Below, in pieces: positions 53,857 through 61,459 of a DNA stretch of 64,000 bases. The translations under genes and the position numbers were made by a program. The notes beneath the pieces were generated by a model, which was given only the letters and a program-made list of their open reading frames with translations, was not told the origin of the DNA and did not search any database. Each line of letters starts with the position of its first letter. Positions within the stretch are counted from its first letter, which is position 1. The stretch is taken from the NCBI GenBank assembly GCA_024711125.1, contig JANJTM010000031.1, positions 34,059-98,058 of the forward strand, given 5' to 3'. This DNA is from Rhodothermales bacterium (GTDB lineage: Bacteria > Bacteroidota > Rhodothermia > Rhodothermales > UBA10348).

Positions 53857-53937
53857 GCGGGTCGGGGCCCGCCGGCGCTGCGTGAAGTCCGCGTCGCGAC
53901 GGGCGCGCGTAGTATCTTGCGGGACGATCTCCCCGCG

Positions 53938-54546
53938 ATGCCCGACGAGCACCCCATACCGATCCGTTCGAGCCTCGGCAAGTTCTGGACGCTGGCGAAC
54001 GTGCTGAGCATGTTCCGCCTGGTCATCGTGCTGCCGGCGGTCTGGCTGCTCTTCGTGGACGGACCCCTGTTCTGGGTCATGGCCCTCGTCCTGCTGGCGA
54101 TAGCGACCGACTACTTCGACGGCCGGGTCGCTCGCTGGTCCGACACGGTTTCGGCCTGGGGCAAGGTCCTGGATCCCCTCGCCGACAAGGTGGCCGGAGG
54201 GCTCGTGGTGCTGGCGCTTACCCTTCGAGGCTCGTTGCCGGCGTGGTTCCTCGCGCTCATCCTGGTGCGGGACGTGGTCATTTTCCTGGGCGGAATGGTG
54301 ATTCTCCGCATGACGACGCAGGTCCCGTCGAGCCTCTGGTCGGGTAAGGTGGCCGTCACCGCCATCGCGATCACGGTGCTCGCGGCGATCCTGAAGGCCG
54401 ACCCGGAGGTGATGCGGTTCTGTCTGTACGCGACCACGGGCCTGCTCGGGTACTCCTTCCTCCGGTACGTCGTGCGATTCATCGCCCTCGCTTCACGCAG
54501 AATGGGCGGAACGGCAGGCCTGCCCCCGGCGTCGGAGGGCGGCTGA
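53938..54546 (+). CDS. CDP-alcohol phosphatidyltransferase family protein; an alternative TTG start lies at 53917
   Basis: ATDYFDGRVARWSDTVSAWGKVLDPLADKV matches the D(x)2DG(x)2AR...G(x)3D(x)3D motif. Confidence 0.75.
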   Translation: MPDEHPIPIRSSLGKFWTLANVLSMFRLVIVLPAVWLLFVDGPLFWVMALVLLAIATDYFDGRVARWSDTVSAWGKVLDPLADKVAGGLVVLALTLRGSLPAWFLALILVRDVVIFLGGMVILRMTTQVPSSLWSGKVAVTAIAITVLAAILKADPEVMRFCLYATTGLLGYSFLRYVVRFIALASRRMGGTAGLPPASEGG

Positions 54547-54562: not shown

Positions 54563-55531
54563 ATGGGCATTTTCGACCGTTTCAAGAAGGAAGAGCGCCG
54601 AGAGGCCGAACAGGCCAGCCTGGAAGCAGGCCTGGAAAAGACTCGGACGAGCCTCTTCGGCAAGCTGAATCGATTGGTCCGCGGCAAGGACCAGGTCGAT
54701 GCCGAAGTGCTGGACGAGCTCGAGGAAGCGCTCGTGACGAGCGACGTGGGGGTCAAGACCACGGTCGAGATCATCCGCCGCGTGGAGGAGCGCGTGGCCA
54801 GGGACCGTTTCGTTTCGGCGGCCGAACTGCAGGGTCTCATCCGCGACGAAATAACCGGCCTGCTCCAGGCGCACGACCGCGGCCTTCCGGCCGATTTCGA
54901 CGCTCCGCTCCCGAACCGGCCGCACGTGATCATGGTCGTCGGCGTCAACGGAGTAGGCAAGACCACCTCGATCGGAAAGATCGCGTGGCACTACCGCGAG
55001 GCCGGCAAAAGCGTGCTGCTCGGCGCCGCCGACACCTTCCGCGCCGCCGCCACGGAGCAGTTGGACATCTGGGCCGACCGGGCCGGCGTCGAGATCGTCA
55101 AGCAGGGCCACGGGGCCGATCCTGCCGCGGTCGCCTTCGATACGCTCGCCGCGGCGAAGGCCCGCGATACGGAGGTCGTGATCATCGATACGGCCGGCCG
55201 CCTCCATACGAAGGGCGGCCTGATGGACGAGCTGTCGAAGGTCAAGCGGGTCATGGAACGGCAGATCCCTGACGCTCCCCACGAGGTGCTGCTCGTTCTC
55301 GATGCTTCGACCGGGCAGAACGCGATCCGGCAGGCCGAGGAGTTCACGAAGAGCGTCGAGGTTACCGGCCTCGTGCTCACGAAGCTCGACGGCACGGCCA
55401 AGGGCGGAATCGCGATCGGGATCTCGAACGAATTCCGCATCCCGGTGAAGTACATCGGGGTCGGGGAGCGCATCGAGGATCTCCAGGTCTTCGACCGGAG
55501 GAGGTTCGTCGACGCGCTCTTTCACGGCTGA
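54563..55531 (+). CDS. ftsY: Signal-recognition-particle receptor FtsY
   Basis: VGVNGVGKTTSIGKIA, DTFRAAATEQL, DTAGRLH and TKLDGTAKGG. Confidence 0.9.
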   Translation: MGIFDRFKKEERREAEQASLEAGLEKTRTSLFGKLNRLVRGKDQVDAEVLDELEEALVTSDVGVKTTVEIIRRVEERVARDRFVSAAELQGLIRDEITGLLQAHDRGLPADFDAPLPNRPHVIMVVGVNGVGKTTSIGKIAWHYREAGKSVLLGAADTFRAAATEQLDIWADRAGVEIVKQGHGADPAAVAFDTLAAAKARDTEVVIIDTAGRLHTKGGLMDELSKVKRVMERQIPDAPHEVLLVLDASTGQNAIRQAEEFTKSVEVTGLVLTKLDGTAKGGIAIGISNEFRIPVKYIGVGERIEDLQVFDRRRFVDALFHG

Positions 55532-57145: not shown

Positions 57146-58075
57146 ATGCGCATCGTCTACATGGGCACGCCGGACTTCGCGGTCCCGTCGCTCGAAGCCC
57201 TGTCCGAAGCCGGCTATGCCCCGGTCGCGGTCGTGACCGGTCCCGACAAGCCCCGGGGGCGTGGGCTTCAGGTCACGCCGACTCCGGTCAAGGAGGCCGC
57301 CCTTCGTCTCGGCGTACCGACGATTCTCCAACCGGAATCGGTGAGGGACCCCGGCTTCGCGGCCGACGTCCGGGCCCTGGATGCCGACCTGATCGTGGTC
57401 GTGGCGTTCCGCATCCTTCCGCCGGAGGTGTTCTCCGAGGCGCGCTTCGGCGCGTTCAACCTCCACGGATCCCTGCTTCCCCGGTGGCGGGGCGCCGCGC
57501 CGATTCACCGTGCGGTCATGGCGGGGGACGTCGAAACCGGTGTGACGACGTTCTTCCTCAAGGAGCGCGTGGACACGGGCGACATGATCCTGCAGCGACG
57601 CCTTCCCATCGGACCGGACGATACCACCGGCGAGGTCTACGAACGGTTGATGCATCTCGGAGCGGACGTCGTGGTCGAGACGGTGCGCCTCGTCGAGTCG
57701 GGTACGGTGCGCGAGATACCGCAGGACGAACGACTGGCCTGTCCGGCACCGAAGGTCTTCCGCGAGGAGGCGGGCATCGACTGGACCCGTCCTGCGGGGA
57801 GCGTGCACGACTTCGTTCGCGGCCTTTCGCCCGTACCGTGCGCCTGGACGCGGTGGGCGCAGGGCGAACTCAAGATCTATCGGACGGCGCGTGTGACCTC
57901 ACCGCCGGCCGCACCACCGGGAACGGTCGTTTCGGTATCCGACGCCGTGATCGTGGCGTGCGGAGAGGGGGCCGTTCGCCTCGTCGAAGTCCAGCCCGAG
58001 GGCCGGCGCCGCATGGATGCCGATGCCTTCGTGCGCGGCTACCGGGTACGCCCCGGGGACCGTCTCGGGGCATGA
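57146..58075 (+). CDS. fmt: Methionyl-tRNA formyltransferase
   Basis: MRIVYMGTPDFAVPSL, FNLHGSLLPRWRGAAPIHRAVMAGD, and a C-terminal EVQPEGRRRM. Confidence 0.9.
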   Translation: MRIVYMGTPDFAVPSLEALSEAGYAPVAVVTGPDKPRGRGLQVTPTPVKEAALRLGVPTILQPESVRDPGFAADVRALDADLIVVVAFRILPPEVFSEARFGAFNLHGSLLPRWRGAAPIHRAVMAGDVETGVTTFFLKERVDTGDMILQRRLPIGPDDTTGEVYERLMHLGADVVVETVRLVESGTVREIPQDERLACPAPKVFREEAGIDWTRPAGSVHDFVRGLSPVPCAWTRWAQGELKIYRTARVTSPPAAPPGTVVSVSDAVIVACGEGAVRLVEVQPEGRRRMDADAFVRGYRVRPGDRLGA

Positions 58076-58259
58076 AGATTTCCCAAATCGATCCCCTCCG
58101 GTTGGGCGCAGTTGCATTGCTGGGCATAAGCCCATAGCCTGCAAGGTTGATTCCGCGTTTTTCCGCTTTTCGCCAGCTTTTGTGCCCATCCGGTTCCCGA
58201 CCGATTCCACGGCCACGCCGTCGTCTTTCGTCCAGCCGTTCCTGCACGCGCTGAACCGG

Positions 58260-59423
58260 ATGCGTGCGCAGGAAAGGCTCAGGCCGGACCAGCTGACCGA
58301 CCGGGCCCACGCGTTGCTCTACGAGCGCCTCGGACCCGCGCGCGAGCCGGCTGAAGCGGCTTTCGCGCACGGTGCGATCGGCCTCATGGCCGACCACACG
58401 CACTATTTCGACGGCTTCGCGCTGCTGCTTTCGCTTCCGCACGGGGCCGCGGTAGCCCTGCGCGCCTCGTCGTCAGGCGAGACCCGCATCGTCAGCGACC
58501 AGGTGCCGGGCATGGTCACGATCACCGCCGCGAGCGACCTGTCACGGTTGGCCGACCCGTGCGTGAGAGTCGCCGCCGAGTGCCTGAGACGGGTCATGGA
58601 CGACAACCTGCCGGTCGAGGCAGCCGTCGTGACGAACCTGCCCCCCGTCATCGGACCCGGCAGGGACGCAGCCGTCGCGGTCGCGACCACGCGCGCGGTG
58701 CTCGCGTTGCGGGCGCTCGCCATTTCGGCGGACGACCTCGTGACGAGCGAGGTGGACGCGCTCGAGGCGGCCACCGGCGCGGCATTCAGCAACGCCTACG
58801 TCCAGGCGGCGAGCATCATCGGAGACCACGCGTTCGTGCTCGTGGACACGGCAACCCTCGAGCGCATCACGATGGACGTGCCTCCCGCGGAACGTCCGGC
58901 CTGGGCCGTGCTCGGGACCTCGCCGGTTCGCGGACTGCGCGCGTACAGCGACCACACCCGCAAGGCTCGTGCGGAAGAGGCGCTGGCCGCCCTGCTAAAC
59001 GGCGGATTCGACGAACTCACGTCGTTCCGCGACCTGCAGCACAAGGACCTCGAGCGCGCGCTGACCGCCGCTCCCAGGCGCCTGCGCCCGGTGGTCCAAT
59101 ACCTCGTCACCGAAAACGCACGGGTGCAGCGAATGGTCACCGCCGTGCGCAAGCAGGATTGGCAGATGCTCGGCGCGCTGCTGCTGATGTCCCATTCGGC
59201 CAGGCGCAGCGAGTGGCGGGCGACCGTCGATCGGACCGATTTCCTCGTCGCCGAGGCGGAACAGATGGGCCTCGAAGGGATCTACGGGGCGTGCCAGCTC
59301 GGCGAACAGCCGCACGGTGTGCTCCTGATGGGCCTGCCGATCTCGGTCGTTCCGTTCCTCGATCGCCTCCGCGAGGGTTTCGCGGCCCGATTCCGCGAAG
59401 AACTCGACGTGTTCCTACCCTAA
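58260..59423 (+). CDS. Galactokinase-like GHMP-fold protein with all kinase motifs degenerate (probable pseudokinase)
   Basis: IGLMADHTHYFDGFAL replaces NLIGEHTDYNGGFVL, LPPVIGPGRDAAVAVA replaces P.GSGLSSSAA, and YLVTENARV...LMSHSARRSEW is retained. The first ATG after the fmt stop was used as start. Confidence 0.7.
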   Translation: MRAQERLRPDQLTDRAHALLYERLGPAREPAEAAFAHGAIGLMADHTHYFDGFALLLSLPHGAAVALRASSSGETRIVSDQVPGMVTITAASDLSRLADPCVRVAAECLRRVMDDNLPVEAAVVTNLPPVIGPGRDAAVAVATTRAVLALRALAISADDLVTSEVDALEAATGAAFSNAYVQAASIIGDHAFVLVDTATLERITMDVPPAERPAWAVLGTSPVRGLRAYSDHTRKARAEEALAALLNGGFDELTSFRDLQHKDLERALTAAPRRLRPVVQYLVTENARVQRMVTAVRKQDWQMLGALLLMSHSARRSEWRATVDRTDFLVAEAEQMGLEGIYGACQLGEQPHGVLLMGLPISVVPFLDRLREGFAARFREELDVFLP

Positions 59424-59439
59424 GCCCCGTACCCCATCC

Positions 59440-60435
<996 letters not shown>

Positions 60436-60439
60436 TCCG

Positions 60440-61459
60440 ATGGCCCGGAAACCCAGCCTCTTCAAGAAGGAGTCGATCCCGGTCTCGTTCATGGTGGACC
60501 AGCTCCGGGGCACGGTCGGCGTCGACCTTCGCTCGGTGAACGACGTCGATGCCTCGACCCGGCTGGTGACCGAGAGCAACCTGCACCGGCCCGGGCTCGC
60601 GCTGGCCGGCTACCTCGAGCTCTTCACGTTCCAGCGCGTCCAGATCCTGGGCAACACCGAGTGCCGCTTCCTGCGGCACCTCGACAAACAGGCTCGTCGC
60701 GAGGCATTCGCCAAGCTCGTCGCCTTCGCGATTCCGTGCATCGTGATGACCGAGTCGAACCAGCTCGGTGCGGAACAGGTGGCGCAGGCGACCGAAGCGG
60801 GTGTGCCCGTCTACGTCACGAAGATGCCCTCGACCGACTTCATGTCGGTCCTGCAGGACTTCCTGAACGACCAGTTCGCGGTTCAGCAGTCGATCCATGG
60901 GGCGCTGATCGACGTGTACGGCATCGGCCTGCTCATCATGGGCAAACCGGGAATCGGCAAGTCGGAAGTCGCCCTCGACCTCGTCGAGCGCGGCCACCGG
61001 CTGGTCGCCGACGACGTCGTCATCGTGACCAAGAAGCAGGAATCGGTGCTCATGGGCTCGGGCACCGACCTCGTGCAGCACTTCATGGAAATCCGCGGCC
61101 TCGGCCTCGTCGATGTGCGCGCCATGTTCGGCGTGCGGGCGATCCGCTTCCAGAAGCGCGTCGAGATGGTCATCAACCTGCACCCGTGGGACGGCCACAC
61201 CGAGTACACCCGGCTCGGCATGGTCGACGAGACCTACGACATCCTCGGCGTGCAGCTTCCGCTCGTCAAGCTGCCCATCACCCCGGGCAAGAACGTCACG
61301 GTGCTCTGCGAGGTGATCGCGATGAACCACCTGCTGCGCCACTACGGGTACGACCCGGCCGAGGTGTTCGCCAAGCGTCTGTCCGAGCGCATCGCGGCCA
61401 AGAAGGGGTCGCGTGACCCGGGGCGCGGGATCGAGTATTTCGAGCACGATTACGAGTAG
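60440..61459 (+). CDS. hprK: HPr kinase/phosphorylase, full-length two-domain form
   Basis: GIGLLIMGKPGIGKSEVALDLVERGHRLVADD and MEIRGLGLVDVRAMFG. The start lies 4 nt after the moxR stop. Confidence 0.9.
   Translation: MARKPSLFKKESIPVSFMVDQLRGTVGVDLRSVNDVDASTRLVTESNLHRPGLALAGYLELFTFQRVQILGNTECRFLRHLDKQARREAFAKLVAFAIPCIVMTESNQLGAEQVAQATEAGVPVYVTKMPSTDFMSVLQDFLNDQFAVQQSIHGALIDVYGIGLLIMGKPGIGKSEVALDLVERGHRLVADDVVIVTKKQESVLMGSGTDLVQHFMEIRGLGLVDVRAMFGVRAIRFQKRVEMVINLHPWDGHTEYTRLGMVDETYDILGVQLPLVKLPITPGKNVTVLCEVIAMNHLLRHYGYDPAEVFAKRLSERIAAKKGSRDPGRGIEYFEHDYE

Follow-up and report, generated by a model that had tools for sequence, protein, structure and literature searches.

Pseudoenzymes are well documented in eukaryotes and poorly catalogued in bacteria. 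The point of reference for the protein described here is galactokinase (GalK; GALK1 in humans; EC 2.7.1.6), which is covered by the curated model TIGR00131 and by the Pfam domains PF10509, PF00288 and PF08544. The functional roles assigned below to its residues (Arg37, Asp46, Asp186, the Mg-binding Glu and others) are those of the GalK structure papers. Yeast Gal3p, the ligand sensor of the GAL switch, which binds a repressor partner once galactose and ATP are bound, is a retained, non-catalytic paralogue with working galactokinase paralogues in the same genome. The P-loop and nucleotide site of Gal3p are intact, and the protein is reportedly two residues short of being a kinase (Platt et al. 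2000, as cited in 10.1101/032136). Galactose and ATP serve as ligands in Gal1p/Gal3p signalling (10.1101/2022.03.07.483271). XOL-1 of C. elegans has the GHMP fold, binding of ATP to it was not detected, and its sequence is only slightly similar to that of any protein from outside the nematodes (PMC11349215).

The stretch of DNA analysed here, called the window, comprises 64,000 nucleotides from a Rhodothermales bacterium and encodes a galactokinase homologue, psGalK, that resembles each of these proteins in part. Judged by its sequence, psGalK is a new order-wide family of predicted bacterial GHMP pseudokinases. Searches of the literature for a bacterial GHMP or galactokinase pseudokinase, or for the psGalK family itself, found no paper. 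Public records name the family members 'galactokinase' or 'hypothetical' (for example WP_072715316.1 of Rhodothermus profundi, 'galactokinase'), and metabolic reconstructions of Rhodothermales could therefore wrongly credit the Leloir step to a protein that is almost certainly unable to perform it.

The psGalK gene is a genuine coding sequence, as its in-frame third-position GC of 0.80-0.89 indicates. The preliminary description had placed its start at ATG 58260, which gives 387 aa and loses a conserved N-terminal helix. The most likely true start is GTG 58182, with the ATG lying 78 nt too far 3', because a helix conserved family-wide (consensus P-P-F-V-K-P-F-L-x-A-L-x-R-M) is predicted for the 26 codons upstream of the ATG, and the database form has 413 aa. 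The sequence strings on which that description relied (ADHTHY, PPVIGPGRDAAV, NAYVQAA, YLVTENARV and LLLMSHSARRSEW) are all present in the translation of 58260-59423. The features of the locus are collected in the table; between 55.6 and 58.1 kb, codon-position GC decided the frame and the strand.

Features of the psGalK locus, with positions counted from the first letter of the window and residue numbers of psGalK
Feature	Position	Strand	Remarks and evidence
CDP-alcohol phosphatidyltransferase (pgsA-like)	53917-54546	+	
ftsY	54563-55531	+	
GWxTD-domain protein, 478 aa	55655-57091	+	TIGR04514, 109 bits
fmt (methionyl-tRNA formyltransferase)	57146..58075	+	NCBIfam TIGR00460, 257 bits; synteny
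psGalK CDS	58182..59423	+	413 aa from the probable start GTG 58182; open reading frame, translation, GC3, family N-terminus
Remodelled galactose-signature loop, residues 60-82	58359..58427	+	column statistics, hhalign, Pfam
Former GHMP phosphate-binding loop, residues 154-165	58641..58676	+	P-P-V-I-G-P-G-R-D-A-A-V; alignments, Pfam
Former catalytic segment, residues 199-210	58776..58811	+	GIMDQ equivalent F-S-N-A-Y-V; alignments
Most conserved family block, residues 302-345	59085..59216	+	V-T-E-N-x-R-V helix, family-specific D-W-Q, M-S-H
Former motif III, residues 366-386	59277..59339	+	GGGFGG replaced by a shorter G-E-Q-P-H-G, then G384; alignments
moxR-type AAA+ ATPase	59440..60435	+	Pfam AAA_3, E 7e-66; synteny
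hprK, HPr(Ser) kinase/phosphorylase	60440..61459	+	NCBIfam TIGR00679, 357 bits; synteny

The homology of psGalK to galactokinase is far beyond chance. Its best NCBIfam match is PRK03817 (E 2.7e-25), the GalK structure 6tep in the PDB is matched at E 4.6e-11 by HMMER, and in hhalign the family aligns to 20 canonical GalKs with a probability of 100% and an E-value of 2.6e-55 over 372 columns. The AlphaFold model, for which 60 relatives were used, reaches a mean pLDDT of 93 and a pTM of 0.91. The top Foldseek matches of this model are all galactokinases, human GALK1 among them with a TM-score of 0.75-0.80, and the probability is 1.00 for the GalK structures of human, Pyrococcus, Lactococcus and Bifidobacterium; model and structure search thus both recover the two-lobed GHMP fold, which psGalK has in common with GalK. 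The galactokinase homology of the preliminary description is in this way corroborated by PRK03817, hhalign and Foldseek alike. Unlike true GalKs, psGalK falls far below every curated GalK cut-off: PRK03817, the best equivalog, scores 89.1 bits against a cut-off of 443, and TIGR00131 scores 49.4 bits against 226.65. The Pfam domains GalKase_gal_bdg (PF10509; 19.7 bits, cut-off 23.1) and GHMP_kinases_N (PF00288; 18.4 bits, cut-off 22.3) are likewise sub-threshold, and only one in 60 family members matches GHMP_kinases_N at E<=0.001. A further difference from GalK lies at the two ends: psGalK has the extra N-terminal helix and lacks the last ~15 residues of GalK.

The catalytic and nucleotide-binding motifs were compared column by column between 127 members of the family and the 48 other matches of a representative search, which are GalKs; four of these 48 are themselves degenerate and were dropped only for the analysis of family-specific positions, so that the percentages for motifs include them. 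The register was taken from three alignments (HMMER pairwise, MAFFT and hhalign), with GalK residue numbers as in human GALK1. In the galactose signature, Arg37 is replaced by Ala65 (the column is 91% Arg in canonical GalKs and never Arg in the family) and Asp46 by His74 (91% Asp in canonical GalKs; 75% His and <1% Asp in the family). Glu43, conserved in canonical GalKs, is Asp in psGalK, and Glu or Asp in 73% of the family, and His44 is retained as His72 (91% across the family); the full Arg37/Glu43/His44/Asp46 signature of PF10509 is not present in psGalK. The P-loop G-x-G-L-S-S-S, whose columns are each conserved at 81-93% in canonical GalKs, has become V-I-G-P-G-R-D, and psGalK lacks the longer phosphate loop P-x-G-S-G-L-S-S-S-A-A of PF00288. 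Across the family the Gly and Ser residues are gone from this site, and the consensus is P-x-x-C-x-D-A-Y-L-A-A-L, in a segment that is itself variable.

The remaining motifs have fared no better. Leu194 takes the place of the Mg-binding Glu (93% Glu in canonical GalKs; Ile, Leu or Val in 87% of the family). The catalytic Asp186 (95% Asp in GalKs) corresponds to Tyr206 in both MAFFT and hhalign, with Tyr or Phe in 70% of the family, and the HMMER pairwise alignment sets it opposite an Asn two residues before Tyr206. Neither the Asp of G-I-M-D-Q nor the upstream Glu is present, and GAAFSNAYVQAAS, the segment around Asp186, contains no acidic residue at all. At the GGGFGG site psGalK has QLGEQPHG; motif III, T-G-G-G-F-G-G in GalK, reads L-G-E-Q-P-H-G here and T-G-R-G-G in the family consensus, two residues shorter than in GalK. 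Arg37, Asp46 and Asp186 are all absent in 125 of the 127 members, and the other two retain one each. A shift of register that would bring the catalytic residues back, one of the refuting conditions named in the preliminary description, was considered and rejected, since the three alignments concur and no acid lies near the position of Asp186.

Several statements of the preliminary description can be read against these columns. Its list of eroded motifs (GEHTDY, the P-loop, the Asp of GIMDQ and GGGFGG) agrees with MAFFT, hhalign and HMMER. Two of the checks that it had proposed come out in its favour, as the two Pfam domains are sub-threshold with their catalytic positions replaced, and the loss of the motifs holds family-wide in orthologues (125 of 127). 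The best explanation of these replacements is that psGalK would be able neither to bind the phosphates of ATP nor to transfer a phosphate.

The signature loop, which retains His72, Thr73, Tyr75, Gly78 and Phe79, is the best-conserved stretch of the N-lobe. Over the ~370 homologous columns, psGalK has H-T-x-Y-x-x-G-F, V-T-E-N-x-R-V, S-H-x-S (S-H in the comparison of the two sets) and a conserved L-x-D, the Asp of L-V-D-T (99%), in common with true GalKs. Other positions are strongly conserved and specific to the family, namely His287 (95%), Trp327 (78%), Gln328 (98%) and Gly384 (97%), to which Met336, Glu360, the Gln-Pro-Phe after Gly384 (consensus G-Q-P-F) and the N-terminal helix are to be added. 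The strongest family-specific conservation falls in the C-terminal lobe. Of the residues that contact galactose, half have been exchanged, and their substitutes are conserved at 75% (His74), 60% (Tyr206) and 38% (Tyr255), which is weaker than would be expected of a precise ligand site.

psGalK proteins form one clade within the galactokinases (SH-aLRT 100), on a long stem of 1.29 substitutions per site. Two long-branch members, P0057 and P0162, come from contigs of f21, a family in the same order. Matches to psGalK were obtained in 124 of 151 genomes of the window's order, some of the weaker ones being canonical GalKs. When 401 genomes of the phylum were searched with the family profile, no member of the family was found outside Rhodothermales: scores were >=369 bits inside the order and <=186 for canonical GalKs. 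A distribution wider than the order was rejected, as the loci outside it (<=186 bits) are closer to canonical GalK and have no adjoining moxR or hprK. All 40 of the 40 named loci belong to Rhodothermales or Rhodothermaceae, or to MAGs labelled only as Bacteroidota or uncultured bacterium; the cultured Roseithermus sacchariphilus is among the hosts, as is Rhodothermus profundi. No internal stop was found in about 100 genomes. The within-genus dN/dS of 0.11-0.20, comparable to that of fmt (0.23-0.29), is that of a functional protein rather than of a decaying gene, and psGalK combines such purifying selection with the residue loss in 125 of 127 members, as a pseudoenzyme does. As read from tree and rates, a true galactokinase gave rise to the family once, no later than in the ancestor of the Rhodothermales sampled; the family would have diverged rapidly, and purifying selection has maintained it since. 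It has been cleanly lost in several lineages, where its role is evidently dispensable. In genus g31 of the order, psGalK is present in some genomes and absent from others.

Intact sugar kinases are found in the window's own genome. A GalK-type kinase is encoded on contig 71 (L001:1468-2622), and a second GHMP sugar kinase of 436 aa on contig 12 (L002:1393-2703). The contig 71 kinase has the signature G-N-H-T-D-Y, with Asn in place of Glu. In the tree it falls outside the main GalK clade, close to other R-N-H-D kinases at the unresolved base, so that its sugar may not be galactose. A dependence of psGalK on canonical GalK was rejected, as many genomes have psGalK alone and others GalK alone; in several, psGalK is the single GalK-type copy and a canonical GalK is absent.

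In the window, moxR begins 16 nt past the stop codon of psGalK and hprK 4 nt past that of moxR. Of 20 loci drawn from many families, 18 have the three genes side by side and in one direction, and the same arrangement is seen in most of the ~90 genomes that have both genes. This trio is embedded in a longer housekeeping string that runs from the pgsA-like gene, ftsY, the GWxTD gene and fmt to an M23 peptidase and bamA. The M23 peptidase gene lies 3' of hprK in 11 of 18 loci, and a BamA-like Omp85/POTRA gene comes next in 10 of these 11 (for example L035:11466-15333 and L038:11527-15441); the continuation makes the whole ftsY-to-bamA block one of conserved housekeeping synteny. In the window itself, the place of M23 and bamA is taken by a spacer that carries repeats and by a GH106 gene of opposite orientation. 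The position of the GWxTD-domain gene between ftsY and fmt is conserved in many genomes of the order.

The juxtaposition of moxR and hprK is specific to the order Rhodothermales. HprK is present in 295 of the 401 genomes of the phylum, and in 11 outgroup loci from sister orders and other classes (L092-L103) neither MoxR nor Fmt nor psGalK was found beside it. No paper linking HprK with MoxR was found. The arrangement is broken in several ways within the order. At least seven loci from four families have a clean deletion of psGalK, so that fmt is followed directly by moxR-hprK; in at least three lineages and four genomes (G106, G008/G033 and G101) psGalK stays with fmt and moxR-hprK is elsewhere; and in G027 psGalK stays with moxR while hprK has moved. 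Family f26 (13 genomes, 96-99% complete) has neither HprK nor psGalK and only a canonical GalK. The identity of MoxR is 68-87% where psGalK is present and 69-82% where it is not. A VWA or DUF58 partner of MoxR was found neither in the flanks of the window nor as a conserved fourth gene after hprK, where the M23 peptidase and bamA stand instead. The window's genome encodes HPr and EIIA-type proteins.

Several explanations have to be weighed for a protein with these properties. psGalK is the fastest-evolving gene of its block, with 31-43% identity across the order, and it has been lost repeatedly, as a decaying relic without function might be. The canonical GalKs of the same order are equally divergent (36-39%), however, the reading frame has stayed intact in about 100 genomes under the selection described above, 60 diverse members share four invariant and 22 nearly invariant columns, and the structure is predicted with high confidence; a relic is extremely improbable on these grounds, and a decaying pseudogene was rejected on dN/dS and on retention across the order. 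An active kinase with an unconventional mode of ATP binding would be in keeping with an intact overall fold and its two lobes, yet it is very improbable given that three alignments show no P-loop, Mg-Glu, catalytic Asp or Arg, or motif III, and that the segment in place of the P-loop is variable. It has also to be considered that psGalK might have become a new enzyme, one that performs an ATP-independent (for instance isomerase- or epimerase-like) sugar chemistry through its new His and Tyr. His72 and Glu/Asp71 are retained in the cleft and have indeed been joined by His74 and Tyr206, and the signature loop is the part of the N-lobe that is best conserved. This proposal is nevertheless improbable, because the new residues are only 60-75% conserved, far under what is usual for catalytic residues, and the polar positions conserved at >=90% are solely those common to true GalKs or located in the C-lobe. 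We know of no ATP-independent enzyme of the GHMP/GalK fold.

The gene order suggests another possibility, namely that psGalK, MoxR and HprK form an order-specific module in which psGalK would be a sensor that sets the kinase/phosphorylase activity of HprK, or an adaptor of MoxR. Co-direction and adjacency, seen in 18 of 20 loci as well as in most of the ~90 genomes, speak for such a module, as do the 16 nt and 4 nt gaps, the absence of the moxR-hprK pair from 11 outgroup HprK loci, the joint absence of HprK and psGalK from family f26, and the availability of HPr and EIIA-type proteins to HprK; the adaptor version gains from the absence of a VWA or DUF58 partner near MoxR. Since the trio sits inside a longer conserved housekeeping string, its adjacency may be merely inherited, and a module is harder to reconcile with the at least seven loci in four families that retain fmt-moxR-hprK after deletion of psGalK, with the genomes in which psGalK and fmt are separated from moxR-hprK (G106, G008/G033 and G101), and with a MoxR identity that is the same with or without psGalK. 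All in all the module is possible, if unlikely. The link to moxR-hprK that the preliminary description had proposed therefore stands as far as common adjacency goes, and is weakened by the longer string and by its repeated breakage or loss.

The reading that we favour, at slightly better than even confidence, is that psGalK is a pseudoenzyme: a GalK paralogue that has kept the full fold, is kinase-dead, is maintained by selection and would act by binding. A non-catalytic role is the natural reading of a loss of motifs that is both stable and selected, and psGalK may thus work through binding rather than catalysis. The cleft with its conserved signature loop may still be able to enclose a small ligand resembling a sugar, and as acidic residues of the cleft are replaced by His and Tyr, that ligand may differ from galactose. 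In the C-lobe, His287, Trp327-Gln328, Glu360 and Gly384-Gln-Pro-Phe could make up a putative partner-binding surface, with the products of the next two genes downstream, MoxR and HprK, as candidate partners. The best reading is of a non-catalytic, possibly ligand-binding, regulatory protein with a putative partner. Within it, a speculative and distinctly doubtful version would make psGalK an order-specific metabolite sensor that passes carbohydrate status to HprK/HPr, possibly via the partner-less MoxR, in a trio of genes assembled in this order alone. If true, carbon-catabolite signalling in bacteria would have an input of a new kind, and psGalK would be, to our knowledge, the first known bacterial GHMP pseudokinase with a regulatory role.

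Non-catalytic ligand binding had been proposed in the preliminary description, with Gal3p as the model, and of this proposal the non-catalytic part fits the data well. The analogy to Gal3p appears to be only a loose one. Both are retained paralogues beside intact galactokinase-type paralogues in the same genome, so that this much of the Gal3p-like logic applies; Gal3p needs ATP, whereas the phosphate loop of psGalK is gone throughout the family, which argues against an ATP dependence of the Gal3p type. The nucleotide site of psGalK appears destroyed and half of its sugar contacts are changed, the origins of the two proteins are independent, and the flanking genes that were scanned include no Gal80-like partner of the oxidoreductase fold. 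XOL-1 would seem closer to psGalK in logic than Gal3p, as a GHMP fold without nucleotide binding; it is a developmental regulator, and psGalK too may serve in regulation and not as an enzyme. In contrast to the eukaryotic XOL-1, psGalK is bacterial and still recognisable as a galactokinase by sequence.

With one origin, in one order, in ~100 genomes, with an intact fold and under strong selection, psGalK offers a clean case of a bacterial pseudoenzyme. Genetic modification has been achieved in a strain of R. marinus (PMC5822342). Together with the cultured hosts (Roseithermus sacchariphilus and Rhodothermus), this makes the role of psGalK and any contact with HprK or MoxR directly testable.

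Degenerate relatives are also seen in other collections. GalK-like clusters of the ESM Atlas that are labelled Bacillota and Actinomycetota have the galactose-binding signature and rarely the P-loop domain, and the motifs of the metagenomic GalK-like proteins P0161, P0163 and P0168 are degenerate too; dead galactokinases may, from these examples, exist outside Rhodothermales.
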